This document shows positions 42,556-60,329 of a stretch of DNA of 64,000 nt, piece after piece. The notes beneath the pieces were generated by a model, which saw only the letters and a program-made list of their open reading frames with translations, had not been told where the DNA came from and did no database searches. Made by a program: the position numbers and the translations under genes. Positions within the stretch are counted from its first letter, which is position 1; every line of letters begins with the position of its first letter. The stretch lies in IMG/VR virus record IMGVR_UViG_3300031853_000013, positions 27,113 to 91,112 of that record, one strand, 5' to 3'. This DNA comes from a virus (taxonomy: Duplodnaviria; Caudoviricetes).

Positions 42556-44463
42556 TTAGCCCTGTGCTGGAACGTACTCGATAACCATTGCAGAGTACGG
42601 CTTAGTCAGAGCACCAGAGCATCTGGTCTCCATCAGGTACTTCATCTGGTTGTAGTCGATGTCGAAATCATCGAAGGTGTTGATCTCACCGCCACGGTCA
42701 GTACCAATTACATAGTCTACCGGGTTAACGATGATACCTGCCAGAGTGTGAACAACAGCCGAAGCGCCCTCACCAACGGTACGAGTTCTGCCGATCATAG
42801 GCTCTACAGTTACAACATCGCGAACGAGCATTGCGGTAGCCAGCTCTTCCTTGGTTCTGTAGAGACGACGGCCGATACCGTCCTCAACCAGCAGCAGGTC
42901 TGCCAGAGTCTCAGCAGTGGTGTAGAATACCGGGTTACCGGAGCCCTTGTAGTCCTTACGAGCACGGATAACGGCCTCGATGAGGTTCTTAGCCTTGGCC
43001 TCAGATGTATCAGATGCTGCAACCGGTACAGCTACCTTGATAGAGAACAGATCTCTATCGGTGTAGATCGGAACGATGCAGTCCTCGTTGATCTTGTCGT
43101 TAGCCTGAGTTACCGGGTCACGACCATCACCGATAAGAGCTGCAACAGCGATCTCCTCATTCAGCATTACACGCATCTCACGACGGATGTATGCAACAAC
43201 GTCGAAGCTGGTGATATCCAGAACATCGTCGCGATCGAGCTTCTGCTTCTTGTATACAGTAGTAGGAGTGATAACTCTACGCAGGAGCTTGAATACTTCC
43301 TCAACCTTCAGATTGCCAGTGATGTAACCTCTAGCGCGAGCCTCCTCAGCAGTGATATCAGCAAAGAGCATCTTGATTCTGGTGAACGGGGACTTCTTTA
43401 CGCCGTTCAGGAAAGAGGTAACCCAAGCCATGTCACGGGAGACGAACTCCGGCTCAGCGGTCATGGTTCTAGCATCCGGGAACAGCCAGTCGATATCCTT
43501 GATACCATAAGTATCAGCGTGTGCCAGGATAGTCTCACGAAGGGAGCCCTTCTTAGGAGCTTCTGCGAAGATAGCGGCGGTCTCACCTCTCAGCTCCTCT
43601 CCATGCATCAGTGCATTTGCATCAGTGGAGTTGATGGTGTTGTAAGTAGCGGTGTCCTGATCGAATACGTTGTGCTTCATAGTGTTTTCATCCTCCTCAT
43701 AGTTATCATCGGAATGTTTAGCAGTAGACTTGTTGTTCTTCAGAGCTTCACCAATCAGGAAATACATAGCCTGCTTCTGCTCTTCGGTCATAGAATTGAT
43801 TACGTCAGCGACGGTCTTATTGGAGTCATCCTTGTCAGCATGCTCAAACTCATCGTCTTCGTCATCATCGTTATCATCTTCATCCAGATCAGCATCGCTG
43901 TCCAGATACTCGTCTTCATCGTCTTCCTCAGGCTCGAAGTCCTCGTCCTTATCAGACAGGAAGAGATTACCCTCCTCATCATGGCAGAGGAACAGCTGAG
44001 TCTCGGTATCGATGATTTCGTCATTGTAAACGAAACCCTGCTCGCCGTATGCTTCCGAACCGTCAGAATGAGCGATGATGTTGTCAATGTATGCGCCAGG
44101 GTTAGCACCGTGCATTACGAGGCTTACCTCACGGATGTTGCCATGGATAACGTCAGAACCATTCTGAGTAAGGCCGTTAGCGTAAATAGAAAGCGCCTCG
44201 ATATCACCGTGCTTTACGGCTTCCTTTGCGGCAAGACCATTCTCAGAGCTATTGAGAGCGCAATAAGCATACACACCCTCTGCTCTGTTCTCAAGCAGTG
44301 CATGGCCTACAACGCTTGCCGGAGAACTATGATCGTGATTCCACATAAGCGGAACTACGTCACAGTCATTGTCCTTGAATGCGTCACGCTTGATGACACG
44401 GCCGTCAGAGCATTTGATGTTGTTTCTAGTGGCCCAACCACTAAAGTCAAACTGATGTGCCAT
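42556..44463 (-). CDS. prohead protease - acidic scaffold - major capsid polyprotein
   Basis: HK97-type protease (WNHDH, ALSIYA, EVSLV..GANPGA), D/E-rich linker, capsid domain ending FDIDYNQMKYLMETRCSG. Confidence 0.9.
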   Translation of the reverse strand: MAHQFDFSGWATRNNIKCSDGRVIKRDAFKDNDCDVVPLMWNHDHSSPASVVGHALLENRAEGVYAYCALNSSENGLAAKEAVKHGDIEALSIYANGLTQNGSDVIHGNIREVSLVMHGANPGAYIDNIIAHSDGSEAYGEQGFVYNDEIIDTETQLFLCHDEEGNLFLSDKDEDFEPEEDDEDEYLDSDADLDEDDNDDDEDDEFEHADKDDSNKTVADVINSMTEEQKQAMYFLIGEALKNNKSTAKHSDDNYEEDENTMKHNVFDQDTATYNTINSTDANALMHGEELRGETAAIFAEAPKKGSLRETILAHADTYGIKDIDWLFPDARTMTAEPEFVSRDMAWVTSFLNGVKKSPFTRIKMLFADITAEEARARGYITGNLKVEEVFKLLRRVITPTTVYKKQKLDRDDVLDITSFDVVAYIRREMRVMLNEEIAVAALIGDGRDPVTQANDKINEDCIVPIYTDRDLFSIKVAVPVAASDTSEAKAKNLIEAVIRARKDYKGSGNPVFYTTAETLADLLLVEDGIGRRLYRTKEELATAMLVRDVVTVEPMIGRTRTVGEGASAVVHTLAGIIVNPVDYVIGTDRGGEINTFDDFDIDYNQMKYLMETRCSGALTKPYSAMVIEYVPAQG

Positions 44464-44469
44464 TTTGAT

Positions 44470-45726
44470 TTATTCCTCCTCTGTATATTGTTCAGAATCA
44501 TCTTCTGTAACGACTGGTGCAGGTTGTGCTTCGTCGGCAGATTGATTAAGATTCTTATTTCTAAGCTCGTTTGCTGCGGGATCATTAACCGGCTTGTAAC
44601 CGACGATCGCTCTAACTTCATTAGACGAGAGAATCTCATTTCTAGTGAATTTATCAGCGATATCCGCTACCTTGTCTACCGGAACGAGCTTAAACGGATC
44701 CCGGAAGAACCATATGCTATGTCTTCGAGTTCGCTGATTTTGTGATAAGAATTTTCTCTTAAACTCATCAGCGATAGCTGCAAGGACTGGCTCTACGGTT
44801 CTGGTATAATAGTTCAGCAACTCTTGTTCGGAAGCACTTCCGTCTAATATCGCCTGCGTGATACCGAGTTGGCTATACAAGTCTGCTCTTAGGTCTTTAA
44901 CTTGCGATGCCAATGTGTTTTCAACAGGTCGGTTCAACTGAATGATCTTCTCCGTACCGTCTGTGTATGCAATGCCATACTTTGAGCCGGTAAGTTGCTG
45001 CTCTATATCTTTTCGTCGATGTTCCGCTTGCTGACGTCTAGCGTCGGTCTTAATTACATACGGAAGCTGAACGATAAGATCAAGTTTGTTACTACTATTC
45101 TGTTCATCCATAATATCAATAAGATTGAGCTTACGAACTAACCGCTTAGCAGTAGAGTTAGGCTCATTCATTACTGAATAGAACGGATTCTCAATAATAG
45201 CTATGGACGTCTTGGGACATGTGATTTCCTTATACTGCCCGTCGCGTTCATCGTATAGACGCACCCGAACCCGATCAGGAAACCACTCGACAATTTTACC
45301 GGTGCGCATAGAGAGAATATCGTACGTGTCAGTAAAATCCGGATTATTGTCTGTAGAAACCGGAACAACTGCTACTACCCCTTCGTCAAACATTGAAAGT
45401 ACTATGTCCAATATAAAAGCACGTCCAGTTTGATCGATGTTGGCTTCGAGAGTCATCCTTTTATTGAGTTCGTCGTCAATGGTTTCCACATACTTGCCGT
45501 TTTCGTCAAGTTTAGCATGTAAGAGATTAATCTGTGCTACATCGTTAGCGATACGGTTATATACAGCGTTCACAACCGATCGGTCATTACCTAATGATAA
45601 AACCGTTCTGTCAGGTCTTACGCTATGCCCGCCATACCAGCTGTAGTCATAATTGTTTCGTTCCTTCGTAGGGTCACGTCCTATAAACGCATTCCACCCA
45701 TGTTGTAATCTAGTTAGAATAGACAT
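44470..45726 (-). CDS. portal protein
   Basis: 418 aa between TerL and protease; VYNRIANDVA, ILSSNEVR. Confidence 0.88.
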   Translation of the reverse strand: MSILTRLQHGWNAFIGRDPTKERNNYDYSWYGGHSVRPDRTVLSLGNDRSVVNAVYNRIANDVAQINLLHAKLDENGKYVETIDDELNKRMTLEANIDQTGRAFILDIVLSMFDEGVVAVVPVSTDNNPDFTDTYDILSMRTGKIVEWFPDRVRVRLYDERDGQYKEITCPKTSIAIIENPFYSVMNEPNSTAKRLVRKLNLIDIMDEQNSSNKLDLIVQLPYVIKTDARRQQAEHRRKDIEQQLTGSKYGIAYTDGTEKIIQLNRPVENTLASQVKDLRADLYSQLGITQAILDGSASEQELLNYYTRTVEPVLAAIADEFKRKFLSQNQRTRRHSIWFFRDPFKLVPVDKVADIADKFTRNEILSSNEVRAIVGYKPVNDPAANELRNKNLNQSADEAQPAPVVTEDDSEQYTEEE

Positions 45727-45734
45727 TGTGTGTA

Positions 45735-46082
45735 TTATTCTCCCTTTAAAAGTTGATCAACGAAAGCAGAACCTAAATCGACTGTCACTTTACCTGTGAT
45801 ATCTCCCATTCGTTCATCATGTAATTTCCACCAGTTGTCATTATATGCTTTTTCGGCTTTGGCGGCTTCGTTTCTAGCAGTTCCGGAGGCGCCTTTATTT
45901 TTCATGAGGTTGGTTTTAAATAACTTATAATCGCTCGCGTCTTGGCTAGCTTTTCTAAGTTTATCCATGCGCTTCTCGCGTATCTCGACCTTATGCTCCT
46001 GGTAGTACTGTTTATTGTACTCCTTTTCAGCGGCCTTTTGTTCAGGGTTTTTGCCCCAGGAATGGTATAAATATTTGGACAT
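45735..46082 (-). CDS. basic 'HSWGK' family protein
   Basis: YLYHSWGKNPEQKAAEKEYNKQYY. Confidence 0.75.
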   Translation of the reverse strand: MSKYLYHSWGKNPEQKAAEKEYNKQYYQEHKVEIREKRMDKLRKASQDASDYKLFKTNLMKNKGASGTARNEAAKAEKAYNDNWWKLHDERMGDITGKVTVDLGSAFVDQLLKGE

Positions 46083-46095
46083 TTATTCACCACCT

Positions 46096-47841
46096 TTAAT
46101 AGAACAAATCCTTATTAGCCTTCCACGCTACATATGCGTCCATCATTGCTGAGACGTTATCGATCTTCTGGTCATTGCGTTTCTTAAGAAGCTTTCGGTT
46201 ACCATTGGTGTCCTCCAAAGTAATGCAGTTACCCATGCAGAACTTCATAAGCTCCTGATCGAACCTAAGCATCCTATCTTCAGACAGAATCTTGAGTTCG
46301 CCAAGAGGTACCGACTCTGTACGTGCACCCTGTATTACTTTTTCGATACCATAGGCTCCATTCTCAGTTTCCCACCGTGTAACAAATTCCTTTGCATTGT
46401 ATGGGTCAAATCCGAAAGACACTATTTCGTAACCGCAGTCTGCGATATACTTATCAACGTCATCGTAGACTTCGTTGATGTCTAGAACAGAACCATCCAT
46501 GACAATCAAACTACCCTCTTGCATAAAGATGTCATAGGTGGCTCTCATAGCAAGAGGAAGTTTGGCGAGAGTTCTGGCGGTTATATAGGATCGAACCTTG
46601 ATACCAAAAGAACCATCTCTAAGTGGGAACATGAATGTAAATGCACAGAAGTCGTCGCCTTGAGACAGGTCAGCACCCATACTACAAGGAAGACCCCAGT
46701 AATCACGTCTTGGATGACAGAGAGTCTCACCATACGTGAAGAAGTATGTGTAACCCTCCATCGGTATTCCGAAACGTTTAGCCAGAATATCATTTCTAGC
46801 AGCGGGTGCTTTCTCGGCTCTGTCAACATCTAGCTGATATGTTTCATATGTGACAGTCTTACCCAGATTAGGATTAGCCTTAAGCCACATGTTAGGATCA
46901 GCAACTTCTTTGATGTCATCAAGTCGATACCACCATATGGATACGTGAGGATTGATGTACTCGCCCTTCAGTATGTCCATAAGTTCCATTTTGATTGTAT
47001 CACCACTTCCATTACGGACAGTACCCTCAGAAGAAATAGCAACAATCAAATAGTCATCAAGCTTAGAAGCTCCCTGCTCAATAGCACCGATAACATCTTC
47101 ACGTACATCGCCAGAAAGCCACTCATCAATGGTGGCAATCTTACAACGCATACCCTGAAGCTTATCGATACTCATCGGACGGATCTCGATAATGGAGCCG
47201 GTTAAGAAATTCTCAATTCCTTTCTTGGTGGATGCTAGTTTACATCGATTGGCTTTGGCGCCTGTAGTATTCTGCAAACTACCTTCGGTTAAGAATTGGA
47301 ATAGCGGACCTCGTGCGCGAGTAATGGACGTTCGAATAGGTGACAAAACCTCTTCCGCTTGGTGCATGGTAGGAGCGGTAGTTATCTGTTGTGTTGTGAA
47401 AGGGTCTATGTTCAAATGATAGCTTTGTATACAGGAAGCATACATGGATTTCGCAGCACCTCTGGCCACAATCAGGTATTGCTTATTGATTAGTCGTTTC
47501 TTTATACGCTTCTTTTCGTAATGTCCTTCAACACCATCCTGTGGAGGTACAAAGACACTACGCTCAATGAAGTAATACCAGCCATAGATTTGCTCAGCCC
47601 ATAATTTAAAGCTATCCAAAAGATGTAAATCTGAGCCATCAGTTAGGGTTAGCTCTGATTCACAATATTTGATAAAGCCTTCAACCGCCTCGTCATCGTA
47701 GTAGATCGAAGGATTATCAATTAGGTCGTCTATGCGGTTCATCTCCATGGAAATTTCCTGATTAACTGGTATTTCTCGTCGAAGTACCGCATCACGAAAC
47801 TTTCCATAATAGATCGGGACCGCCGTGTTACTTAAACTCAT
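46096..47841 (-). CDS. terL: terminase large subunit
   Basis: Walker A VARGAAKS, Walker B ATIDE, nuclease GADLS and KIDNVSA. Confidence 0.95.
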   Translation of the reverse strand: MSLSNTAVPIYYGKFRDAVLRREIPVNQEISMEMNRIDDLIDNPSIYYDDEAVEGFIKYCESELTLTDGSDLHLLDSFKLWAEQIYGWYYFIERSVFVPPQDGVEGHYEKKRIKKRLINKQYLIVARGAAKSMYASCIQSYHLNIDPFTTQQITTAPTMHQAEEVLSPIRTSITRARGPLFQFLTEGSLQNTTGAKANRCKLASTKKGIENFLTGSIIEIRPMSIDKLQGMRCKIATIDEWLSGDVREDVIGAIEQGASKLDDYLIVAISSEGTVRNGSGDTIKMELMDILKGEYINPHVSIWWYRLDDIKEVADPNMWLKANPNLGKTVTYETYQLDVDRAEKAPAARNDILAKRFGIPMEGYTYFFTYGETLCHPRRDYWGLPCSMGADLSQGDDFCAFTFMFPLRDGSFGIKVRSYITARTLAKLPLAMRATYDIFMQEGSLIVMDGSVLDINEVYDDVDKYIADCGYEIVSFGFDPYNAKEFVTRWETENGAYGIEKVIQGARTESVPLGELKILSEDRMLRFDQELMKFCMGNCITLEDTNGNRKLLKKRNDQKIDNVSAMMDAYVAWKANKDLFY

Positions 47842-47862
47842 ACACTAATTGCTTCTTTCATT

Positions 47863-49290
47863 TCATACGTCTTCACGCCAACCTCCGCCAGGACGTTTGG
47901 TGTATCTAAACGTTCCTTTATCAGAATCGGTGCGTCCTATACTGCCATCAAATGATGCTATACCAAGGGTATATGGTGACGATGATAATTTAGTAGTATT
48001 CAAGATAAGATCTCCTGATGAGTTAGTAGACACATTAGGTGTATGCCACTCGGTAGGCATAGCCAAATCAGCAAAGGAGGTTTTAGCAGCTTTTTCCATT
48101 CCTGAATAATAACTTAAATATGTGGCAGCAGATTGTGCAGCCTCTCCTTTACCCTTAGCGATTTGTTTTAATTCTTTAGCCGATTGTAATCCAGTGTTAA
48201 CATCAAAAACGTCAGGAGCTTTAGTCTTATTAAATATACCCTGTTTTCCCGTAGTAGTTGTAGCATTAGACGCCCAATCATCAGAAGTTATCGTATCTGA
48301 TTTACCGCCAGGCCCAGATTTAGGACCGTTAGGATTGTTATTATTGCCACCGGTATTATCGGAATCGTTGCCTTTATTTTTCTTGTTTTTGCCGTCACTG
48401 CTATTATCATTATTGTTTTTATTTTGTGCATTAATAGCATCAACAATCTTGTCCGAGTCAGACTTACCCTTCTTAGGCATAAGCGATTCCCAAGGCTGAA
48501 TCTTAAATACGGGAAGTTTCTCATAGCCGGCGATCTCGTTTACATTGGCAGCGATCTTATTATAGGCTTCATATGCCCCTACGGCAGTACCGGCAATGCC
48601 GACAAGAGTTTTGCCAGTAGAAGCAATCTTGTCAAGAGTGATCTTACCATCCTTAGCAGTCTGGCGATTTTCTTTCGTCTGCTTGAGACTCTCGAGAGCC
48701 TTCTTATCTTCTGGCTTGATCTTTTCGAGTTTGCTAATCCGATTAAGTGCCCGATCGAGCTCATCGTCATTGAGCATGGCACGATTCTTATAGACCTCTT
48801 TTGGAGTAGCGCGATTAATAAGATGTTCAACCTGCTTAGAAGACTTTTCGGTCTTAAACTGGTTCACCTTATTAATGCGAGCCATAGCCTTATCGAGCTC
48901 TTCATCGCTAAAGAGTTCTCGATTCTTATAGATAGCATCCTTATCGCCTTTAGCAATAAGCTTAGCCTTCTTATCTTCGATAGCCTTTTCGCGCTTTTGT
49001 CTAACTTCCTCAGCCTTTTGAAGTTTAAGTTTCTTATTCTCTTCCTTCTTTTCAGCCTTGAGCTTAAGACGCTTACGTTTTTCAGAATCTGTTTCCAATC
49101 TAAAAGATTTACGGGTCTTAAGCTTATTGGACACTGCATTTCTAGCCTGTCCAATGCCCCAGTGAATTCGTCCGAGCGGAGTTAGAGAACCATCCTTATT
49201 CTGATACCGTCTCTCGCCCCACTTTTGTCCAGTAACTCCGTAATGGGCCAGAAAGTTAACTTCAATTTTCTGGTTTTCCATCTCCATCAT
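47863..49290 (-). CDS. basic protein with an N-terminal 'HYGxxGQKWGxRRYQNxDGSLT' module
   Basis: module shared with 54785..55603; internal YKNRxxxxDxELDxAxxRI duplication. Confidence 0.8.
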   Translation of the reverse strand: MMEMENQKIEVNFLAHYGVTGQKWGERRYQNKDGSLTPLGRIHWGIGQARNAVSNKLKTRKSFRLETDSEKRKRLKLKAEKKEENKKLKLQKAEEVRQKREKAIEDKKAKLIAKGDKDAIYKNRELFSDEELDKAMARINKVNQFKTEKSSKQVEHLINRATPKEVYKNRAMLNDDELDRALNRISKLEKIKPEDKKALESLKQTKENRQTAKDGKITLDKIASTGKTLVGIAGTAVGAYEAYNKIAANVNEIAGYEKLPVFKIQPWESLMPKKGKSDSDKIVDAINAQNKNNNDNSSDGKNKKNKGNDSDNTGGNNNNPNGPKSGPGGKSDTITSDDWASNATTTTGKQGIFNKTKAPDVFDVNTGLQSAKELKQIAKGKGEAAQSAATYLSYYSGMEKAAKTSFADLAMPTEWHTPNVSTNSSGDLILNTTKLSSSPYTLGIASFDGSIGRTDSDKGTFRYTKRPGGGWREDV

Positions 49291-49687
49291 TCTTCACCTC
49301 CGTCATATCATCTCTGCCATTTTGAATTATTTCATTCATACTTTCGAGAGCCTTATCAATAAACTTCGGTATCGGAACTCCGAGCTTTTTCAGATTCTCG
49401 CAAATACTCACGACTTCCATAAACATTATGTATATGGAAAACGCTTTAAGAATGTAAGACGGAAAGTTTAGGCCGGCAGTAAAAATCTCACCAATAAATA
49501 AGATCATTATTTCCCCAAACTTTCTTCCTAGGCCTTCTCGCATTCTGTATGATTTAAGATGACCCGTAACCCAGGCATGCACAACTCCAGTAAGCACATC
49601 GATAGCCATTAAAGCCGCAGGAATAAGCATTATCCAACTAGGATTCCGAAAGTCAACATTAGTAAGTAACGTTTCAATCTCGTTCAT
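49262..49687 (-). CDS. holin (phage holin family 4-like)
   Basis: IDVLTGV...SYRMREGL.RK...EVVSICENLKKLGVPIP. Confidence 0.85.
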   Translation of the reverse strand: MNEIETLLTNVDFRNPSWIMLIPAALMAIDVLTGVVHAWVTGHLKSYRMREGLGRKFGEIMILFIGEIFTAGLNFPSYILKAFSIYIMFMEVVSICENLKKLGVPIPKFIDKALESMNEIIQNGRDDMTEVKNDGDGKPEN

Positions 49688-49763
49688 TGGTCAAATCCTT
49701 TCTAATTTCTAATTGCTAGCGGAGACCAGTCATAAACCAATCTCCGCCGACAACTTGTAATGC

Positions 49764-50303: not shown

Positions 50304-50324
50304 TTTGATTCCCTCCTTCTAAAT

Positions 50325-50811: not shown

Positions 50812-51732
50812 TCACGCATTGCAGCCACAGCCGGTGTAGAAATTCTGATTAGCGCAGCAGTTAGGATTCTGGACAACATATGCCGGAATGGGAGCCGGAT
50901 TCAGATACTGCTCAAGTGCCTGGGTCTGAGCCTGATTGTCAGCCAGGATAGCAGCACGGTTAGCCAGGCCCTCAGCGCGAATATTCTGTGCAGTAATCTG
51001 ATTCTGCAGGGATGCGTTCTGAGCCTTGAGAGCATCGATTTCCTGCTGACACAGCTTGTCCTGAATACTCTGAATACCGCTGTTAATGGTATTAAGCAGC
51101 ATCTGAGTGTTTGCAGTATTGTTCGTGATGATGTCACGAGTGTTGTTAGCTGCCTCGTAACGATCCTGACAATGCTCCTGAGCATTAGCGTACTTAGAAT
51201 CCAGAACAGCAGCACGATTCTCACAGCAACAATTCTGCTGAGCCATAGAAATGGTATTGAGCTGGTTAGACAGGCCAGTCTGAAGATTGAACATCTGGTT
51301 CATGTTAGCCATCTGGCGGGCGTTATCGGATGCCTCTGCAGCAGAGAAACCAGAATTTACAGCAGCAGTAACGCCGTTAAAGCCGTTGCACAGAGCCTGG
51401 TTAACGCCAGCGAAGCCAGAGCACATGCCCTGATTAACGCCAGAGAAACCATTAGTAACAGCACTGGTCAGACCATTGATACCAGACATTACTGCCTGCT
51501 GATCAAAGCCTCTCTGTACATCGTTGTTGGTGGAGTTGTTCATGATGTACGGCATAGCACCGTTACCATAACCGCCGCCCCAGCCATTGCCGTTGAAAGC
51601 GAACAGGAACAGAACCAACAGCCACCAAGCGCCATCGCCTCCGAAGTTTCCGAATCCGCCGTTGCCGTTACCATTGTAACCGGTAGGTGTTACGAGCATC
51701 GTTGTGTTTGTACCGTTTTCTGTGAGTGCCAT
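50812..51732 (-). CDS. Gly/Asn/Gln-rich coiled-coil protein with a hydrophobic WW segment
   Basis: GFGNFGGDGAWWLLVLFLF, QNCCCE, PIPAYVVQNP. Confidence 0.8.
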   Translation of the reverse strand: MALTENGTNTTMLVTPTGYNGNGNGGFGNFGGDGAWWLLVLFLFAFNGNGWGGGYGNGAMPYIMNNSTNNDVQRGFDQQAVMSGINGLTSAVTNGFSGVNQGMCSGFAGVNQALCNGFNGVTAAVNSGFSAAEASDNARQMANMNQMFNLQTGLSNQLNTISMAQQNCCCENRAAVLDSKYANAQEHCQDRYEAANNTRDIITNNTANTQMLLNTINSGIQSIQDKLCQQEIDALKAQNASLQNQITAQNIRAEGLANRAAILADNQAQTQALEQYLNPAPIPAYVVQNPNCCANQNFYTGCGCNA

Positions 51733-51798: not shown

Positions 51799-52137
51799 TC
51801 AATACTTATGTCCCGATTGTAGCCAACGGTCGAGGAAATTAAGACCCGATTCTATAAGATTAGCCGCGTTAGCAATATTAAACTTACGAGCATATTTCTT
51901 ATATACTTTTCTAGATTGTGCGATGGACTTAGCCATTTCATTATGTGCCATCTGCTGAGCACGTCGGGTCTTAATGTCTCCTTCTTTTTTGGAGGTCTTA
52001 ATGTTACGTCGAAGCTTCTTAGAACTAGATTGCTGTTCTTTTAGTGTCTTTTTCCATTTGTCTTTATGAGTCTTATAATACTCAATGTTGTATTCTTTCT
52101 TAGCAGACCCTTTGAATGCGTGCTCGAGAAAATCCAT
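51799..52137 (-). CDS. basic 'HSWGK'-related protein
   Basis: MDFLEHA...KEYNIEYYKTHKDKW. Confidence 0.75.
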   Translation of the reverse strand: MDFLEHAFKGSAKKEYNIEYYKTHKDKWKKTLKEQQSSSKKLRRNIKTSKKEGDIKTRRAQQMAHNEMAKSIAQSRKVYKKYARKFNIANAANLIESGLNFLDRWLQSGHKY

Positions 52138-52161
52138 TTTGAATTTACCTCTCTGGGACGG

Positions 52162-53046
52162 TTACACCAGCTTGCTCTTCTTTTCGTTGAGCTCTTTGAT
52201 CTTGTCGTTCAGTGCGCGAACCTTTTCAGCATTATTCTGAATGTTCTTAGCCAGCAGAGCAGCACCGGACTTATTAACGCCTTTCTCATTCAGTTCCTTA
52301 AGTCTCTTGGTGTCCTCATCCATTTCCTTCTTGATCACGGCCCGCTTGTTAGTAGCATTCATGATCTCGCCACTGATCTTCTGGAATTCCTGCTTCTGCT
52401 TCTCCTTAAACGCAGCGTTCTTGTTCTTAGCTGCCTGCTGTTGTGCGGCCATATTATCAGCATTTGCGTTAGCTCGTGTCTTTTCGCGTCTTGCCTTTGT
52501 ACCGCGTACTTCCTGTCGTGCGGCCTTTGCAGCTTCATTAGCAGCGGCAGCGTTAGCACGCTTAGCAGCTCTCTTAGCAAACGGGTCGTTTTTCACGGTC
52601 TTATCATAGTTGCTCTGTGCCTTTGTTCGACTAGCCTTCTGGGTATCGAGATTTGCTTTAGTCTTATTATAGTTGGATTCAGCGACCTCGAGTTCTTTAG
52701 CAGCCTTTTCAATATCCTTCTGATAAGCAGTACGCTGTTTTGCAATTTCCTTATCGTTAGCGCCTACATTACCGGCGCCTTCGAGGAATTTCTGATACTG
52801 ATTGCGGAGAGTATTCAGCTTATGCTTAGCGGCACCATAATCACGAACGGCGCTATCATGACGGGTCTGAGCACCCTCAATATTCTTATCGAGCTGGCTC
52901 ATGTTGTCCTTGGCGTTCTCACGATACTTCTTCCACTTGTCTTTGTTGCGTCTGTAATACTCAGCATTGTAGCGCTTCTCAGCAGCTTTCTGCTTAGGAC
53001 TCTTACCCCAGGAATGCATGAGAGCATCTTCGAGAAAATCTGTCAT
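52162..53046 (-). CDS. basic coiled-coil 'HSWGK' family protein
   Basis: ALMHSWGKSPKQKAAEKRYNAEYY. Confidence 0.8.
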   Translation of the reverse strand: MTDFLEDALMHSWGKSPKQKAAEKRYNAEYYRRNKDKWKKYRENAKDNMSQLDKNIEGAQTRHDSAVRDYGAAKHKLNTLRNQYQKFLEGAGNVGANDKEIAKQRTAYQKDIEKAAKELEVAESNYNKTKANLDTQKASRTKAQSNYDKTVKNDPFAKRAAKRANAAAANEAAKAARQEVRGTKARREKTRANANADNMAAQQQAAKNKNAAFKEKQKQEFQKISGEIMNATNKRAVIKKEMDEDTKRLKELNEKGVNKSGAALLAKNIQNNAEKVRALNDKIKELNEKKSKLV

Positions 53047-53060
53047 TGTGTTGTCCTCCT

Positions 53061-53669
53061 TTATTTGAATAGGTTCTTAACGAAATCGGTGCCTTTCTTA
53101 GCTGAATCAGAGATCATAGCAGCGCCCATCTTCCAGTTGGATTTGAATTCCTTGGCAGCTTTTTTCGCTTTGGCTTTCGCTAATTTAACATCATTAGCTC
53201 TAGTGTATGTCCGCTCATTAGCCTCGTACTGTTTAATGAGCTTATCGCGTTCGTTATCTGCCATTTGTCTAGCACTGGTATATCGCTTCATGTACTTCTT
53301 TTCGTCATCCCAGCTCATGCCAGATTCTTTGATCTTTAGTCGGCGATTATCTTCGCCAATCTCACGCTGATAACGAATATTGTCATCAACATATTTACCA
53401 ACATCCTGATAGCCCGGCGTCTTTTTAGTTTTCTTTGGCGCAATCGCCCATTTTCCCTGTGAATCTTTAGAGTTGTAATATCGCTTATTATATGTGTCCT
53501 CGTTTTCGTACTGGGATTGAGAAACGCCATTAATAGGCTTGGGTCCGTACTTGGTAGACCACCAGTCCTTATGCTTCCGATAATACTCAGCATTATACTC
53601 TTTTTCTCTAGCTTTCTGCTTAGGGCTCTTACCCCAAGAGTGCTGGAGAGATTCTAAAAAATCCGCCAT
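53061..53669 (-). CDS. basic 'HSWGK' family protein
   Basis: SLQHSWGKSPKQKAREKEYNAEYY. Confidence 0.8.
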   Translation of the reverse strand: MADFLESLQHSWGKSPKQKAREKEYNAEYYRKHKDWWSTKYGPKPINGVSQSQYENEDTYNKRYYNSKDSQGKWAIAPKKTKKTPGYQDVGKYVDDNIRYQREIGEDNRRLKIKESGMSWDDEKKYMKRYTSARQMADNERDKLIKQYEANERTYTRANDVKLAKAKAKKAAKEFKSNWKMGAAMISDSAKKGTDFVKNLFK

Positions 53670-53672
53670 ACC

Positions 53673-53900
53673 TTATCCTTTCCCCATAAGTTGGTTTGCC
53701 ATCTGAGCAACAGCGTTGAACTGTTCCTGTGAGATTTCCCCATTTTGAATTTTCTGCTGAATAATCTGCTGAGGAGACATCTGAGCTTGCTGCAAAAACT
53801 GTTGCTGGAACGTGTTGAACTGATTCATGAAATTGTTGAAGCCACCAAACTGCTGACCAAAGATCGGATTGTTTGGATTGAAATTAAACGGACCACCCAT
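53673..53900 (-). CDS. small Q/N/F-rich protein
   Basis: PQQIIQQKIQNGEISQEQFN. Confidence 0.75.
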   Translation of the reverse strand: MGGPFNFNPNNPIFGQQFGGFNNFMNQFNTFQQQFLQQAQMSPQQIIQQKIQNGEISQEQFNAVAQMANQLMGKG

Positions 53901-54394
53901 TACTGTTCTCCTTTCAATTCGTTGTATAGCGCGTTAATCTTTTCGCTCAGTTTGTCGAACTCCTCTTTACTAACCAGTGGCTCAGAACTGCTCAGTGTCG
54001 ATACTTGCTGAGATTGAGCAGGTTGCGGAACAGGAATAGGCTGAGTAAGTGTAGTGGTCGTTTCAGTGAGCGACCATGTACGAATCGGCAAATCTACTCC
54101 CCACATATCGCGGGCCTTCAGACAAAGTTCTCCCTCTGGAAAGTTGAAAAGAGCGATTGACTGTCCCGACGGTGCCGAGTAGTATCCATATTCAGCTCTG
54201 GAGTTAACCATGAAAACTGAGGTAATACCGCGCTGTTCGGTAGCCATCTGAGTAGCCGATGGTGTAGGATTAATCCACTGAGAGTAATTCGGTTGAGTCT
54301 GTGTAGATTGATTGGGTGTTGCAGTTGGTTGTGGTGTAGGTCTCGCAGTATTTGCTTGGTTGACCACACCAGGTACCCCTCCATAGTTTACCAT
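53900..54394 (-). CDS. Pro/Gln-rich hypothetical protein
   Basis: start MVNYGG after AAGGAG; VSKEEFDKL tail. Confidence 0.7.
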   Translation of the reverse strand: MVNYGGVPGVVNQANTARPTPQPTATPNQSTQTQPNYSQWINPTPSATQMATEQRGITSVFMVNSRAEYGYYSAPSGQSIALFNFPEGELCLKARDMWGVDLPIRTWSLTETTTTLTQPIPVPQPAQSQQVSTLSSSEPLVSKEEFDKLSEKINALYNELKGEQ

Positions 54395-54396
54395 TG

Positions 54397-54777
54397 TTAG
54401 TACTCCTTTCGCCAATAGTATATAGGTTCTTTGTCCCCGCTATCAAAAGAGTCGTAATAGTCCCCATTAACGACCGCTACAACATGCCCTGAGGTCTTAA
54501 GACAATGTTTGCCAATAGGATGATCTCTACAAAAGTCACGCACTGTGTAGATGTCGTATAGATCGTCCGGAAGCAAGTATTTAGTATACCCTCTACGTTT
54601 TAACATAAGACTCCACATCTTATCGTTGGAGGGCATGCTAAATTCTCGCCGACAAATATCCGTTAGTTCATCAAATGCCTCGAGCCATGTTAGATTCTCT
54701 AAGCGGCATAGCATCCGAATCACGCAATCAGTAACATGCTTACCTTTTGGATTGGGGTTGTAGTAGATGTAGGACAT
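54397..54777 (-). CDS. putative papain-like fold protein
   Basis: YNPNP...DCVIR...GHVVAV..GDYYDSFDS (Cys/His/Asp). Confidence 0.65.
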   Translation of the reverse strand: MSYIYYNPNPKGKHVTDCVIRMLCRLENLTWLEAFDELTDICRREFSMPSNDKMWSLMLKRRGYTKYLLPDDLYDIYTVRDFCRDHPIGKHCLKTSGHVVAVVNGDYYDSFDSGDKEPIYYWRKEY

Positions 54778-54784
54778 TTCGAGA

Positions 54785-55603
54785 TTAACCGTCCATTCTT
54801 ACGCCACGTTCAATAATAGGTTTAAGATTATTTAAATCATACTCAACACTAAGAATGTGCGATCCGTGTTCAGGATGGCTAAAATCGATATCCAATGTAT
54901 CCCAATCAGTAATATATGCGCCGGTGGCTTTCAACGCCTTTCTATATTCTTGGAGGGTCATCTTGTCTTTGACATCGTCTACGTTATCATTATATAAGTC
55001 ATCGGCTATGAACTTAGAAGTCTGTTTATATATAGTGTCACTGTTAGATTCCAATTTCTTAATCTTCGAATCCAACGTTTTAATGTGCTCATTTATATAT
55101 CCAGACTTATCACCGGGATCAACAACGGTGTATACTTTTATGTTATCCGGCCCGAGTTTAGATGACTTTTCAGCATAAATATCGCCGCCGAAATCGCCGG
55201 AGTCATCGACTTTCCAACCAGACTTCTTAAACGCATCTGATACCGTATTGTATTCGTCAGTGGCTGACTCTGGGCGTTTGATAGTTTTAGTTTTTGTTGA
55301 CACGCTAGAATTATGTGTCTTATTCTCCTTAGCAAGTCTACCGAGGTCAATAGCCGCTCCGACTAATCCCAACTTTCTGGAGTATTTAGTAACGTCGTAA
55401 TAGGTGCCATCTCCGCGTTCCCTTAAACGCTTGGCACCAGATTTATTCAGAGTTCCGTCAGAATTAAGATACCTCTTTTTACCGGCCTCTGTAAGAGATC
55501 CATCTTTATTCTGATACCGCCTTACGCCCCATTTCTGACCAAGAATGCCATGATGACAAAGAGTGTCCTGTTCGATAAGCGCTTCATACAAAAAATCTTG
55601 CAT
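54785..55603 (-). CDS. protein with an N-terminal 'HHGILGQKWGVRRYQNKDGSLT' module
   Basis: start MQDFLY coupled (TAATG) to upstream stop. Confidence 0.8.
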   Translation of the reverse strand: MQDFLYEALIEQDTLCHHGILGQKWGVRRYQNKDGSLTEAGKKRYLNSDGTLNKSGAKRLRERGDGTYYDVTKYSRKLGLVGAAIDLGRLAKENKTHNSSVSTKTKTIKRPESATDEYNTVSDAFKKSGWKVDDSGDFGGDIYAEKSSKLGPDNIKVYTVVDPGDKSGYINEHIKTLDSKIKKLESNSDTIYKQTSKFIADDLYNDNVDDVKDKMTLQEYRKALKATGAYITDWDTLDIDFSHPEHGSHILSVEYDLNNLKPIIERGVRMDG

Positions 55604-55980
55604 TAATCTTCCACCTCCAGTTTGTTCATTCCAGGGTCGACCTCGACATTGAGACGCCATTCTATTTCCTTAGCCTCTTCTTTCAATGTTGACATATGTG
55701 CAGAACTCTGAGGCGGATCGAATACCAATCGGACTTTGATGTAAATGTAGGTCTTAACTTGCGAAAGTCTCTCTGGTGGATAGTTATCGCCGAGAAAATC
55801 ACGCCAGGTTTGTGTATCGTCTTGCAGCATGAAGCCCGGAGTGCCGACACCGAGCTGCGTGAGATTAGCAAAATATGTATTGGCGTGCATCATGAGATCC
55901 ATATCGAAGTGAGTTATCTCACCAGGAGACGTGGACCCGCCAACTACTTTTCGAAGTTCATTAAGAATAGACGAATCCAT
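55603..55980 (-). CDS. head-tail adaptor-like protein
   Basis: SIL...LTQLGVG...VKTYIYIKVRLVFDPP...EWRL. Confidence 0.65.
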   Translation of the reverse strand: MDSSILNELRKVVGGSTSPGEITHFDMDLMMHANTYFANLTQLGVGTPGFMLQDDTQTWRDFLGDNYPPERLSQVKTYIYIKVRLVFDPPQSSAHMSTLKEEAKEIEWRLNVEVDPGMNKLEVED

Positions 55981-55986
55981 TTTGAA

Positions 55987-56220
55987 TTAGCCTCCTTGCG
56001 AAATTAGTGGATCAACAAGATCGGTCCTGATGTATCCAGTACCAATAGCAGACGTGCATCTATAGAACGACTTGCCCGTCCAATCGTAATATTTTCGTTT
56101 AGTAGATACATCGATGGAATCGCCCTTATGGAGCTCTCCGATCAGCTCCTCGTAAACAGGGGTGATAGACGGCGATCGTCTGATGCCGACAGTTTTCAGA
56201 GGAATTGTTATAGTGGTCAT
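55987..56220 (-). CDS. small SH3b-like protein
   Basis: IRRSPS...IGELHKGD...TGYIRTDLV. Confidence 0.6.
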   Translation of the reverse strand: MTTITIPLKTVGIRRSPSITPVYEELIGELHKGDSIDVSTKRKYYDWTGKSFYRCTSAIGTGYIRTDLVDPLISQGG

Positions 56221-56229
56221 TATATAGAT

Positions 56230-56649
56230 TCACCTCCATGGAATAGTATCGTTTGGTGTACGTTCGGCTGGGCGCGAGGTCTTAATCAGATCCATGTCGC
56301 CAAAGTGTATCGCCTCGTGTGTTAGGAATGATACGAGGACAACATTATTCGGATCAAGAACACACGGCCGATGCTCGATGATGTCGTCGATAGTAATAGG
56401 GTTTATGTGATGAATGAGATACTTGGTGCCGTCAGGAATTGGAAAGTCGGGATGAGCCAAGTCGCAACCTTCATCACGAAGTATGATACGTCTACGGAAT
56501 TGTCTCCACTCATATGATTGGTAGAATTGTTGATTGACATATCGGCGAGATCCAAATGTAGGATCACCAACTCGAGACTTTAGCAGTAGGTATTCGAGAC
56601 GCTCATCGAATGTCGGGAGATTGATCATCTCGAGATATGTGAGGGTCAT
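56230..56649 (-). CDS. HNH endonuclease (packaging-associated)
   Basis: FYQSYEW...RDEGC...IHHINP...N...HEAIH next to TerS. Confidence 0.8.
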   Translation of the reverse strand: MTLTYLEMINLPTFDERLEYLLLKSRVGDPTFGSRRYVNQQFYQSYEWRQFRRRIILRDEGCDLAHPDFPIPDGTKYLIHHINPITIDDIIEHRPCVLDPNNVVLVSFLTHEAIHFGDMDLIKTSRPAERTPNDTIPWR

Positions 56650-56652
56650 AAG

Positions 56653-56994
56653 TTACTCCTCGTATTCGTCTTCATCATTATACGGATTCTGTCCAGAATA
56701 TAATCGCATAGCGTCGAGAGCTTTTGCATACATTTCCTCGACACGCTTAGATGACTCGATAGACTCCGTTTGGGCATCCAGCTTTTTCATTTGCTTCTCC
56801 ATGAGCTCTTTTTCGAGTCGTTCTTTTGTAGTGCCAAGTTTCAGATAATGCACGATTAGCGAATTACTAGCAGACCCATCCATCAATTTCTCCTCGGCTA
56901 GATCCATTGCTAATGCGATTAACTGGTTTTCTCTTGCTTCCGGAGTTCTTGCTGGAGGTCGTTTCTTTCTGTTTGTTTCGTTGGGCTTTGCCAC
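56653..56994 (-). CDS. probable terminase small subunit
   Basis: first gene of the packaging operon; helical PARTPEARENQLIALA. Confidence 0.55.
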   Translation of the reverse strand: MAKPNETNRKKRPPARTPEARENQLIALAMDLAEEKLMDGSASNSLIVHYLKLGTTKERLEKELMEKQMKKLDAQTESIESSKRVEEMYAKALDAMRLYSGQNPYNDEDEYEE

Positions 56995-57042
56995 GATTAC
57001 TTCCTCCTTTTCTAATCTTTCTAATTTCTTTTTCTTTGTTTA

Positions 57043-57160
57043 GGTATTCTTTCTAAAGTGTTTGGGAGTCTTTTTCTCGAGACGAAAGGAGCTACATCTG
57101 GAGGGACGAAGACATGCTGGGACTGATGGAGGTGCCCCCAAACACTTTAGAAAGAATACC
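57043..57160. repeat. 24-bp perfect inverted repeat
   Basis: GGTATTCTTTCTAAAGTGTTTGGG at 57043..57066 and its reverse complement at 57137..57160. Confidence 0.9.
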
Positions 57161-57351
57161 CGCAAAACTACCGGAGGAAAATATAAAAAATATCCCTCCG
57201 GAGAATTTTAGGGGAGAGCGCCGATGCAGAGGGGGTGGGTTGTTTTATATACCCCCTCCCGGGTGCCTTTTATATTTTGGCACGTGGTCCCGGCACTCAA
57301 AAATTTTTTGAATCGAAATCTCAAAACCAAAACAAATAATTTTTCAGAAAA

Positions 57352-57609
57352 TTATTGTTCAAGTTTGTAAGTTTTTGTAATCTTTTTGTACAAACCATTT
57401 AAATTCCATTTAGCAAGTTTGTCACAAACTCTTTCGATTTCTTTGTTGTAATTGTAACTGCTTTCTTCATTCGAAGTGTTCGCAACTCGATCAATCAAAC
57501 CACAAGTGTTGTAACCCATAGAGGTATCGTAGGAGTACCACCTATCAAAGTCATCAAAGAAATCGTAAGGGTTGTCAATGGTTGTCAGCCATGTTTCGGT
57601 GACTTCCAT
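57352..57609 (-). CDS. small conserved protein coupled to the RNA polymerase gene
   Basis: WLTTIDNPYDFFDDFDRWY; starts 3 nt after the polymerase stop. Confidence 0.75.
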   Translation of the reverse strand: MEVTETWLTTIDNPYDFFDDFDRWYSYDTSMGYNTCGLIDRVANTSNEESSYNYNKEIERVCDKLAKWNLNGLYKKITKTYKLEQ

Positions 57610-57611
57610 GA

Positions 57612-60329
57612 TTAAGCACCTTCTTTCTTAACAGCACTAATAGTTGATGTAGAAACATCGAACTTCTCGGCAATGTCGCTAGTTGTCCATCCAGCGTCAA
57701 GCATTGCCATAATTCGTGCTTTGTTAGCAGTTGTTAATCCATTTGACGTTCTAGGCATAGCCCGTTCTTTAAGGGCGTCGTCGTCACAGTTTTTGAATAT
57801 AGCTTCCTGCTTGGTAGCGGATATAGCTCCAGCTTGGATTGCTTCCCATTCACGGTCTGACAGTACAATAGCCTGTCTCTTAGCACCTACGACCTCTCTA
57901 GCGTCTCGGAGAGCATTGTTTTTTACCTTCTTCAGGGCCTCCTTATCGTCTTTCAGCTCAGGGTTATCCTGCTTCTTAGTACGAACCGTCTGATTGGCAA
58001 TAAGCTGGGCCTTACGTTCGAGGGGGGCATTACGTCTAGCATCGTCAAGCTTCTTATCGAGGGATGCTATCTCGTCCTTATATGCCAGGGTGGTAGCCCC
58101 TCTGTTCCACTGGGCGGGTTCCACGCTAAGTGATGCCTTACGTGCACGATTACCAAGGGCCTTCATATAGTTGGCATAGTCGGCATATACCTCTTCCATC
58201 TCGTGTCCAGAGGACAGACTATAGGCATCCTTGGTCTCGTACATTTTAGTACTCTCAACTGGCTTATAGGGTTTGGTGCTAGTTCTGACTTCACCGTTCT
58301 TAAGTACCTTAGTCTTGGTGACAGTCTCAGGATGCTCAGTCCATTTGATTTCGCCAGTTTCCTCGTCAATCCATTGTCCTTTTCTTTCCCGACGATAGAC
58401 ATACTCAGGAGACTTGGCTTTTGACAGAAGTGTAGCAGCGCCACCACGAGCAGATCCCTGGTATTTAGTCTTAAGTTCAGCAATACCGTTATCGATATAC
58501 GACTGTTCGTAGTCTAACCGGTGTTTGTTAGCATCAATTACGACCATCGAATGTCTTGTAGCTCGAGCCAACTCGTTATCATCGGCTCCCTGAAGCGTCA
58601 TATCGGTAATCAGGTTTGTGATCATACCCATCTGTTTACCAGTATCAGCCTTTGTCATGACTCTCATGCCTTCATGGTATCCATATGTGGCCTTAGGATC
58701 AAAGTTCTTCAGTCCTTCGAGCGGGGCAGAGGTCTTTATCTTAACGTTCTTAGTGGGAATAACGAGAGCTGTATCACCGTCAAAGTCCGCACCAGACAAC
58801 TGTTCAGCAGTCTTGCTGTTGATACCGACTGCGTCAATAGCATTAGCGCCCATAACATTAGCGCCCTCTTTGTTCTTGTTATTAACCCTCAGTCTGGGCA
58901 TCTCAAACCGTCCGCCATGAGGGAATCTAACAAGTACAACTTCTTCGCCGTCTTTGTAATTGGGTGCATAAATCTCATTGTCTTTGAGCGTAGTAAGAGG
59001 CAGTAACACATGTGAAGCCTGTCTAGGCAAAGCGGCGGCCTTAAGATCGACTGCATCAGCATCACATCCATCAGCGAACTCAAGAAGCATCTTCTTCTTA
59101 AGAACGGGATTAGTGAGATTCATGATTGTCTCGAACTCTTCATCAGACTCGGCCTTTGCCAGATTGAGCTGTTTTTTAGCAAGCTCGATAGGCTGCTTAG
59201 ACAGAACCTGTGACGCAAGCGTCTTAGCCCATTCGCCCCATTTACCTTCTTCACGAACGATGTTAAGAGCACCTTGAACTTTTTCGCCTTTTTCATTCTT
59301 GTAAGAATTCTGGCGTTCCAAATATGCACCAAACGGGTTGTCCTTGTCGCCGGACTGAAGTTTTAGTACAGTATTATCTTTTTCGCCCATCATGGGAGTG
59401 CCGCGATGCTTATTTGTGTTGAATCGGATGTCCACGCCGTCAGGCAGATCGTCAGCATACACAGCCATGCCTTTAATATAGTGAGTTCCACCAACAGCGA
59501 TACGAACCTGTGCGTACCTTGAATTACCCATATCAAGATCAGCAACACCACGTCTAAGCTCCATAACGCCATCTTTAGCAAGTCCGCCGTCTTCAGCGTA
59601 AACTACACTGACTCGTTTAGGATCTACCTGAACAGGAGGCTTGATAGTACGCCGTTCCTTAGGATCTCCATCAACCATATACTCAACAGGAAGCGCAATC
59701 TTGTCCATATTGTCATATACTTCCTTTTGAGTGACGCCGGCCTTTACTAATACATCCATATTAGTCTTCTGGAGAGGATTCGAAATCTGAGGAATGTGAA
59801 GCTGGACTTTGTCATAGTCTCCGCTATCAACAAGCATCTTAACGGCACTCTTCATGGTATTCTCACTAATACCCATAAAGCGATTAACCTCAGCACCGAC
59901 ATCGACATAGTCCTTCTTGTCAACGGAGTCCTTTAAAATATCGGCGGTGGCATTAATACGGTTAGCCTTGACTTCAGCGCCATCCTTAAGAAGAGTACGA
60001 ACATAAGATTCATTACGATTCATGCGCTTACCGATAGCGACATTGGACATACCCTTTTCCTTTAATTTCTGGGCCATTGCAATATCGGCACGCTTGGATT
60101 CATTAGCGGCGATGCTAAGTCTCTTACGAAACTCTGTGGTGCTAATACCTTCCATACGAGCGATTTCGGTATCACCTTTGCCCTGGGCACGCCAGTAGTC
60201 GACCCTTGAAACGAAGTTCTTACTTCTCTGAGGCTTCTTACCAGATCCCCACGGATAGCGGCCTGAATGTCTGGGTGTGCCATAATGCATTAAAAAGTCT
60301 TCCTTGAATTCGTCAGACATCGGTATCAC
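57612..60329 (-). CDS. putative single-chain two-barrel (DPBB) DNA-directed RNA polymerase
   Basis: GADFDGD (DFDGD codons at 58773..58787) preceded by VRFP; HTH-like segments at both termini. Confidence 0.75.
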   Translation of the reverse strand: MIPMSDEFKEDFLMHYGTPRHSGRYPWGSGKKPQRSKNFVSRVDYWRAQGKGDTEIARMEGISTTEFRKRLSIAANESKRADIAMAQKLKEKGMSNVAIGKRMNRNESYVRTLLKDGAEVKANRINATADILKDSVDKKDYVDVGAEVNRFMGISENTMKSAVKMLVDSGDYDKVQLHIPQISNPLQKTNMDVLVKAGVTQKEVYDNMDKIALPVEYMVDGDPKERRTIKPPVQVDPKRVSVVYAEDGGLAKDGVMELRRGVADLDMGNSRYAQVRIAVGGTHYIKGMAVYADDLPDGVDIRFNTNKHRGTPMMGEKDNTVLKLQSGDKDNPFGAYLERQNSYKNEKGEKVQGALNIVREEGKWGEWAKTLASQVLSKQPIELAKKQLNLAKAESDEEFETIMNLTNPVLKKKMLLEFADGCDADAVDLKAAALPRQASHVLLPLTTLKDNEIYAPNYKDGEEVVLVRFPHGGRFEMPRLRVNNKNKEGANVMGANAIDAVGINSKTAEQLSGADFDGDTALVIPTKNVKIKTSAPLEGLKNFDPKATYGYHEGMRVMTKADTGKQMGMITNLITDMTLQGADDNELARATRHSMVVIDANKHRLDYEQSYIDNGIAELKTKYQGSARGGAATLLSKAKSPEYVYRRERKGQWIDEETGEIKWTEHPETVTKTKVLKNGEVRTSTKPYKPVESTKMYETKDAYSLSSGHEMEEVYADYANYMKALGNRARKASLSVEPAQWNRGATTLAYKDEIASLDKKLDDARRNAPLERKAQLIANQTVRTKKQDNPELKDDKEALKKVKNNALRDAREVVGAKRQAIVLSDREWEAIQAGAISATKQEAIFKNCDDDALKERAMPRTSNGLTTANKARIMAMLDAGWTTSDIAEKFDVSTSTISAVKKEGA

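Follow-up and report, generated by a model that had tools for sequence, protein, structure and literature searches.

A conserved L-x-H signal common to a protease-capsid fusion and to basic head-module proteins suggests a histidine-specific prohead maturation code in a siphophage supergroup

The window analyzed here is a stretch of 64,000 nucleotides that forms the right-hand 64 kb of the 91,112-bp genome of an uncultured phage (IMG/VR record IMGVR_UViG_3300031853_000013, positions 27,113 to 91,112), with nearly all of its genes on the minus strand. Our subject is a short signal, leucine-x-histidine (L-x-H), that recurs in the head module at 42.5-60.3 kb, both in the linker of a fusion of prohead protease and major capsid protein and near the N-termini of several basic proteins. 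In transcription order, the module begins with a YonO/RdRP-like RNA polymerase (RNAP) and small-terminase-like, HNH and connector-like genes, and continues through a set of small genes, a holin-like gene, TerL and the portal gene to the 635-residue fusion. Faecalibacterium phage FP_oengus, Lactococcus phage 1706, ReqiPepy6 and several actinophage clusters make up a phage supergroup (10.1101/842583), of which the window phage is a member, with precisely the same fusion and RNAP being common to the members. A sequence-only reading of the region had listed fifteen instances of a hydrophobic-x-His motif, all of which are found on the minus strand in the open reading frames (ORFs) that it named. 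Coordinates below are window positions on the minus strand, those of sites spanning P3 to P1', and a slash marks the putative scissile bond, with the His at P1.

The fusion (42556..44463; 635 amino acids, aa) matches phrog_3270 (E 2.9e-205) and consists of a protease domain, a linker/scaffold region and a major capsid protein. Residues 22-127 match the Peptidase_S78 profile (PF04586; 25.7 bits against a cut-off of 21), residues 398-628 match Phage_capsid (PF05065; 31.4 bits against a cut-off of 24.2), and the AlphaFold2 model superimposes on HK97-fold capsids of a gene transfer agent (GTA), HK97, T5 and actinophages with Z of 15-17 over 250-260 aligned residues. When we looked for a solved structure of this fusion family, phmmer gave no match, and the Nocturne116 fusion, a distant one, was all that a profile search returned. 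Residues 1-132 (44068..44463) make up the protease domain, which is well folded, with a predicted local distance difference test score (pLDDT) of 81-92 over most of residues 11-110. Its H43 and S92 are invariant among 42 homologues and are probably the catalytic pair by analogy with HK97 gp4, in which H65 and S114 are spaced by the same 49 residues. The linker/scaffold region (residues 133-315; 43519..44067) is predicted to be disposable; residues 133-208 carry a net charge of -36, and the pLDDT is mostly low except in two helices (218-245 and 282-319). What follows is the predicted mature major capsid protein, A316-G635 (320 aa; 42559..43518).

Within the linker, we observe five His residues that are conserved among relatives (73 non-identical fusion proteins with 44-73% identity, aligned from 80 IMG/VR loci gathered around the fusion homologues). 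The first, H132 (IIAH/SD; 44065..44076), lies directly past the protease domain and is His in 73/73 relatives, with I/L/M/V/F at P3 and with S/G/A at P1' in 71/73. H161 (FLCH/DE; 43978..43989) is kept in 86%, with L/I/V/F/M at P3 and mostly S/A/G at P1', while H264 (TMKH/NV; 43669..43680), likewise kept in 86%, sits in a conserved block, MKHNVF[DE], in which the neighboring N265 and F267 are invariant. The last two are H287 (ALMH/GE; 43600..43611; His in 97%, with Leu at P3 in 63/71) and H315 (ILAH/AD; 43516..43527; His in 95%, with L/I/M at P3 and Ala at P1' in 50/69), which marks the predicted scaffold/capsid junction. The remaining two linker instances, H208 (EFEH/AD; 43837..43848) and H250 (TAKH/SD; 43711..43722), are lineage-specific and were rejected as conserved sites, the His being found in only ~5% of the 73 relatives for H208 and in ~4% at the aligned column for H250. 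TAKH is present in ReqiPepy6 and Gordonia phage Rickmore too, and ~20% of the relatives carry an extra conforming His no more than 30 aa upstream of MKHNVF.

These sites share a form, in which P3 is L/I/M/V/F, P2 is variable, P1' is S/G/A/N and P2' is often D/E. They sit in a variable linker (median top-residue frequency of its columns, 0.42), where 375 of 438 His residues (86%) fit [LIVMF]-x-H-[SGAN] compared with 5% expected from composition. Most homologues have 5-6 conforming linker sites, and additional ones have been gained and lost among the relatives with the form unchanged. His accounts for 3.6% of linker residues versus 0.9% in the capsid domain, which in the window phage contains 1 His in 320 aa, and conforming sites in the capsid domain number 0.23 per protein. 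In the AlphaFold2 model, H315/A316 would make a sensible mature capsid N-terminus because the starts of mature capsids align nearby: residues 303-321 correspond to the first ordered residues of the mature HK97 (S104), T5, GTA, D3 and DT57C proteins, and the Pfam capsid match extrapolates to approximately residue 328. Separately, the protease domain has conserved His residues inside its fold that fit the same rule, namely VGH/A (H54), VKH/G (H85) and VIH/G (H107), which may be self-destruction sites used after maturation or mere structural residues.

The first protein of the module to open with this signal is the RNAP (57612..60320; 902 aa from an ATG), which matches phrog_4291 over its full length (E 0, 1126.8 bits) and the Pfam RdRP profile weakly (19.2 bits against a cut-off of 23.8), and in which DFDGD at residues 515-519 corresponds to the DxDGD catalytic loop of the YonO/RdRP-like two-barrel enzymes. 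The ORF (57612-60329) starts with GTG, from which the His would be residue 15; translation probably begins at the ATG at 60320, in agreement with the homologues and behind an AGAGGAG ribosome-binding site. The site FLMH/YG (60282..60293) ends a leader, MSDEFKEDFLMH, that is followed by YGTPRHSGRYPWGSG. Across homologues of 50-99% identity, which were taken from a protein database as a single-sequence IMG/VR search yielded only 4 loci, the His is present in 120/120 and P3 is Leu in 91%, while the leader varies in length from 4 to 28 aa. Their consensus is [DN]-[EFY]-L/I-x-H-Y-G-TPRHSGRYPWGSG, the Tyr being Arg in one case, and the region past the His is strongly conserved (HYGTPRHSGRYPWGSG). 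The genome also contains a repeat, TCGCA-N14-CTTAAT, that occurs 9 times at fixed spacing on the coding strand of the whole genome versus ~0.04 expected, and once more at N20. Six of the copies lie in the window (13387, 13708, 14485, 15124, 15972 and 24394) and four upstream of it. This repeat looks like a phage-specific promoter, consistent with an RNA polymerase of the phage's own, and from the shared leader and the repeats we infer that the RNAP may be packaged in the virion.

Two further proteins are of the DUF7211 type. One, of 272 aa from M20 (54785..55603), matches phrog_32444 (E 8.7e-19) and falls under the cut-off for Pfam DUF7211 (PF23847; 23.8 bits, cut-off 27) while carrying the invariant H-x-G-x-x-G-x-K-W-G; its ORF spans 54785-55660, and the likely start is M20 at 55603, which has a GGAGGTG ribosome-binding site before it and agrees with the homologues. 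Its leader, MQDFLYEALIEQDTLCH, ends in TLCH/HG (55550-55561) and is followed by HGILGQKWGVRRYQNKDGSLT. The other, of 475 aa (47863..49290), lies directly upstream of TerL, scores 28.2 bits against the same cut-off of 27 and has the site FLAH/YG at 49240-49251. Its gene position is that of Lactococcus phage 1706 ORF7, which is annotated as structural in its record, as is ReqiPepy6 gp019, and these annotations provide some indirect support for a virion location of DUF7211-type proteins. We collected 124 unique copies from 80 loci, in which the His is present in 124/124 and P3 is Leu in 93%, with D/N at P5, E/Y/F at P4, H/Y at P1', Gly at P2' and a median His position of 14. The region past the His is conserved as HxGxxGxKWGxRRYQNxDGSLT. 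The best 79 DUF7211 loci in IMG/VR come almost wholly from this phage supergroup: 72 have the supergroup TerL and 54 its fusion, with most of the others ending at a contig edge.

The DUF7211-type opening behaves as a modular tag. ReqiPepy6 has seven tagged paralogues in tandem (gp15-gp21), all with DFLAH/YGVKGMKWG, while Rickmore has two tagged proteins and LibertyBell three. The C-terminal parts found in relatives are diverse and include a papain-fold glutamine deamidase toxin domain, Barstar, helix-turn-helix (HTH) and acetyltransferase. In one IMG/VR relative (L009:1060-2259), the DUF7211 leader precedes the papain-fold deamidase toxin (PF15644, E 6.5e-11) and a C-terminal HTH, and gene 9 of Streptomyces phage LibertyBell (L088:4955-5548), annotated as an acetyltransferase domain protein, starts with MTDLTH/YGVKGMKWG. 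The tag is also found internally, between modules. A 568-aa protein of another IMG/VR relative (L011:3017-4720) has DUF7211 openings at residues 52 and 347 and, in its first module, a domain of the barnase inhibitor Barstar at 129-205; this protein could be a capsid-delivered antidote to host RNase. Internal copies likewise occur in L024 (20, 257), L041, L050 and 1706 ORF7 (L085:2501-3889), the last with DILQH/RGVIGMRWG at 32 and NILLH/KGVKGMKWG at 181, where Arg and Lys show that P1' is tolerant at the level of sequence. Such internal copies look like processing sites between the modules of a polyprotein, tandem uncleaved domains being the alternative.

The last four tagged proteins are basic and form a clade-specific family, which we call SWGK, with a DFL...L-x-H opening. 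These are proteins of 202 aa (53061..53669; leader MADFLESLQH, site SLQH/SW at 53637-53648), 294 aa with a net charge of +31 (52162..53046; leader MTDFLEDALMH, site ALMH/SW at 53011-53022), 112 aa, the SWGK-related member (51799..52137; leader MDFLEH, site FLEH/AF at 52117-52128), and 115 aa, encoded between TerL and the portal (45735..46082; leader MSKYLYH, site YLYH/SW at 46059-46070). Homologues of the 202-aa protein were found only in the close relatives L001 and L015, and a tblastn search with the 294-aa protein against cultured phages gave no match, the family being confined to the closest uncultured relatives. In L001, a 329-aa DUF7211 protein contains an internal PIIQH/SWGTNPEQKK, and the segment behind it is a homologue of the stand-alone 115-aa protein of the window. 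Neither the RNAP nor the four SWGK proteins matched the DUF7211 profile at E <= 0.01, and what they share with DUF7211 is only the opening [DN]-[EFY]-L-x-H-(Y/S)-(G/W). Two other proteins encoded among these genes are without a His leader: a 306-aa Gly/Asn-rich protein with a hydrophobic segment (50812-51732) and a 75-aa Gln/Asn/Phe-rich protein (53673-53900).

Seven head-module proteins, comprising the YonO-like RNAP, two DUF7211 proteins and four SWGK paralogues, thus open with a short leader ending in L-x-H that is followed by a very basic body. As the sequence-only reading had described, the leaders are acidic (net charge -2 to -4 in 6/7) and the 50 residues past them basic (+3 to +11); the predicted mature proteins are 16-26% Lys+Arg. 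Among ORFs of 40 aa or longer in any of the six frames of the entire 91,112-bp genome, L-x-H-[SYHGA]-[WGF] has 11 matches, 8 of them no more than 36 residues from the start of head-module genes. Approximately 0.2 N-terminal matches are expected from rough composition, an enrichment of ~40-fold for a pattern that was set post hoc and for a set in which the four SWGK proteins are paralogous to one another, as are the two DUF7211 proteins. Upstream of the His, a consensus of D/N at P5, E/F/Y at P4 and L-x-H is common to the RNAP and DUF7211 families, which are otherwise unrelated. A comparison across related phages, which had been suggested as a check, shows the His to be invariant in both families and 86-100% conserved at the five linker sites, and we found no lineage with an altered P1 residue. 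Tag and fusion are kept across phyla, in that ReqiPepy6, Rickmore, LibertyBell and 1706 have matching leaders together with matching fusion sites, and the hosts of phages that keep the tag include Lactococcus, gut Clostridia, Rhodococcus, Gordonia and Streptomyces.

The portal protein (44470..45726; Pfam Phage_portal) was also on the original list, with RLQH/GW at 45697-45708, and is a doubtful member of the set. Many relatives have N, K, S, R, W or Y where this His stands, the two closest having Asn, and we rejected the portal as a conserved substrate: the segment R-[LFI]-x-x-[AGS]-W-N-A-F is conserved and the His variable. Of the instances originally listed, the portal His, H208 and H250 are thus the three that lack conservation.

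Comparison of these sequences strongly supports one conserved functional signal common to the fusion linker and to the N-termini of unrelated head-module proteins. We propose that this signal, [acidic leader]-(D/N)-(E/F/Y)-L-x-H, would be the recognition and cleavage site of the capsid-fused HK97-type (S78) protease. Once in the procapsid, the protease would sever its own polyprotein behind five to seven His residues, thereby freeing itself, destroying the very acidic linker/scaffold and leaving a 320-aa capsid protein that begins at A316. It would also trim leaders of 5-16 residues off the seven strongly basic cargo proteins. Recruitment of the cargo to the procapsid would probably depend on the conserved basic region at its N-terminus, which perhaps binds the acidic linker. 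Once the linker has been degraded, the cargo would remain in the head alongside the DNA and would probably accompany it into the cell; packaging of the RNAP would be consistent with the phage-specific promoter-like repeats. We hold with moderate confidence that the polyprotein is dismantled, and capsid-loaded cargo trimmed, by its S78 prohead protease acting with P1-His specificity. Cleavage after His, as the sequence-only reading had it, fits the placement of sites at domain junctions and where mature HK97-fold capsids start, and the charge complementarity between acidic leaders and linker and basic cargo counts in its favor. What we observe is the motif with its conservation and placement, the domain architecture and the charge pattern, and it is from these that we infer cleavage, the exact bond, packaging and ejection. 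The same reading, whose interpretation we find supported in part, had also taken the motif as a probable capsid-targeting signal. If there is such a function, it is more likely to reside in the basic downstream part than in the removed leader because only ~5 residues upstream of the His are conserved compared with 15-30 downstream, which would be retained on the mature protein.

Several observations weigh against this proposal. The P1' and P2' residues differ between the two sets of sites, being S/G/A/N then D/E in the linker and H/Y/S then G/W in the cargo, so that only P3 and P1 are common to both and there could be two different signals. H315 lies inside a predicted helix (308-319) of the monomer model, the P1 residue of known S78 sites is Lys or Arg rather than His, and the portal, H208 and H250 instances are unconserved. 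The packaging of the RNAP is proposed by analogy. Finally, conservation is much stronger past the His than in the leader, a pattern also compatible with a structural or binding role of the His in an uncleaved DUF7211-like module.

This last point leads to the most serious alternative, in which DUF7211, the RNAP N-terminus and the SWGK opening are uncleaved modules that bind the portal, the capsid interior or DNA, or have some other role. Here, the His would be structural and the likeness to the linker superficial, while the linker sites may still be protease sites. Besides the strong conservation past the His in DUF7211 and the RNAP and the unlike P1'/P2' residues, it is favored by the Pfam definition of DUF7211, in which the Leu, the His and the residues behind form one family of 25 residues. 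However, the upstream [DN]-[EFY]-L-x is the same in the RNAP and DUF7211 despite their differing downstream sequences, and the leaders are acidic and variable in both length and sequence. Moreover, the 45-aa tag modeled with AlphaFold2 is without a compact fold that takes in the leader (pLDDT 69, mostly coil), and the aliphatic P3 and His P1 are exactly the linker rule. On balance, we regard this explanation as unlikely.

Two other explanations seem very improbable to us. The first attributes the cuts to a protease of the host, on the example of staphylococcal phage 80alpha, in which host Prp takes an L27-like leader off the capsid and scaffold proteins. The short, N-terminal leaders and this precedent in Firmicutes phages speak for it, but Prp cleaves after Phe-Phe, a site unlike the motif observed here, and the motif is unchanged across phages of Lactococcus, gut Clostridia, Rhodococcus, Gordonia and Streptomyces, hosts with no obvious such protease in common. 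Every such phage, furthermore, has the fused S78 protease with its invariant H43 and S92. According to the second, the His residues of the linker are not scissile but serve in metal binding, scaffolding or assembly, and the N-terminal motifs are unrelated to them. His is a common metal ligand, and several sites are located within or next to helices predicted for the scaffold-like region, but the fixed aliphatic P3 and small P1', the gain and loss of linker sites and their disordered acidic settings are better suited to a protease code. Chance resemblance among N-termini that happen to contain His is negligible and was rejected on the genome-wide counts and the conservation: the looser L-x-H, which occurs 34 times in the window proteome, is found at 11 N-termini versus ~6 expected, but the fuller pattern is strongly enriched and invariant in hundreds of homologues, which refutes chance for 7/8 N-terminal instances and leaves it possible for the portal.

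Extending cleavage after His by the S78 protease to the whole large siphophage supergroup (gut Clostridia, Lactococcus, soil Actinobacteria), we would propose a His-specific L-x-H maturation code in which the DUF7211/HYG opening is a universal tag that loads the single-chain RNAP and changeable effectors (toxin-type deamidase, Barstar, acetyltransferase, histone-like basic proteins) into the head for delivery with the DNA. Our judgment on this broader proposal is evenly poised. It is pure speculation that the invariant Tyr-Gly exposed on the RNAP by cleavage could serve as an N-degron timer in hosts with ClpS.

Elsewhere in the module, the connector-like protein (55603-55980) contains a conserved [IVL]-[IM]-[ML]-H-[IA]-N, which is LMMH/AN in the window and is present in Rickmore gp14 and LibertyBell gp5 too. 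The homologue in 1706, ORF6, bears the annotation of a virion structural protein. This motif is internal to a fold and probably not a cut site.

The papers searched yielded nothing on cleavage or virion location of these proteins, on P1-His specificity, on what DUF7211 does or on these RNAPs being packaged. Papers on Arthrobacter and Microbacterium phages describe the fusion without processing data, and those on Faecalibacterium FP01 and Ayka were set aside as they concern phages unrelated to this one. If true, our proposal would give a function to Pfam domain DUF7211 and a previously unreported P1-His specificity to widespread HK97-type prohead proteases, and it would mean that phages across phyla with their own YonO-like RNAP and promoters could start transcription by bringing the enzyme in the capsid. 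Capsid-delivered proteins, including anti-defense and toxin-like effectors, would be predictable from sequence alone in gut and soil viromes, and in laboratory phage-host systems the tag would be a natural handle by which foreign proteins might be loaded into phage heads. Under the broader supergroup proposal, sequence would directly reveal the proteins injected by thousands of uncultured phages.

Of the closest known systems, T4 resembles the window phage in its cargo, gp21 there acting on capsid-targeting sequences (CTS) of IPI-III and Alt. Both involve short N-terminal propeptides on basic, capsid-internal, injected proteins, an aliphatic P3, any P2 and a fixed P1, and one rule for scaffold and capsid processing. 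T4, however, has a separate S77-type protease that cuts after Glu (L/I-x-E), and the removed leader is itself the targeting signal, whereas in the window phage P1 is His in all instances, the S78 protease forms one chain with the capsid protein and conservation is concentrated past the proposed cut, which sets it apart from the T4-type CTS/gp21 class. In phiKZ and SPN3US, a single motif marks the sites at which the respective proteases, gp175 and gp245, process themselves as well as the capsid protein, portal and abundant ejection proteins, with several motif copies per propeptide and a virion RNA polymerase among the head proteins of phiKZ-like phages (PMC10052503). These are myophages with an A-x-E motif, multisubunit virion RNAPs and an unrelated protease lineage, while the window phage, a siphophage, has an RNAP that is YonO-like and single-chain.

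In machinery, the likeness is to HK97 gp4/gp5 and Nocturne116 ORF18 (PDB 9sz9), which share the S78 protease, the HK97-fold capsid, a basic P1 and a small P1'. Nocturne116 ORF18 is likewise a three-part protease-scaffold-capsid fusion in which the mature capsid begins at the scaffold/capsid junction, although its sequence similarity to the window fusion is marginal (profile E 0.008). The HK97 cut is at K103/S104, with Lys at P1, and that of Nocturne116 is at R242/S243, with Arg at P1 where the window phage has His. The latter cut suggests that a basic P1 and a small P1' are traits of the family that His extends, and His at P1 is less exotic than the sequence-only reading had supposed. Tagged cargo proteins, by contrast, are described for neither phage.

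With N4-like and crAss-like phages, the likeness is in the polymerase: a capsid-carried RNAP would account for phage-specific promoters, and the crAss-like RNAP is also of the YonO/two-barrel type. Those RNAPs are giant proteins compared with the ~900 aa of the window RNAP, and we know of no protease-removed leader on either. Finally, the MuF/SPP1 gp7-type polymorphic toxins of temperate phages resemble the present system in joining a constant head-associated N-terminal module to variable C-terminal effectors. MuF, however, is a folded, portal-binding domain of ~200 aa without a reported cleavage code, whereas the tag observed here is ~25-45 aa in length and opens with L-x-H.

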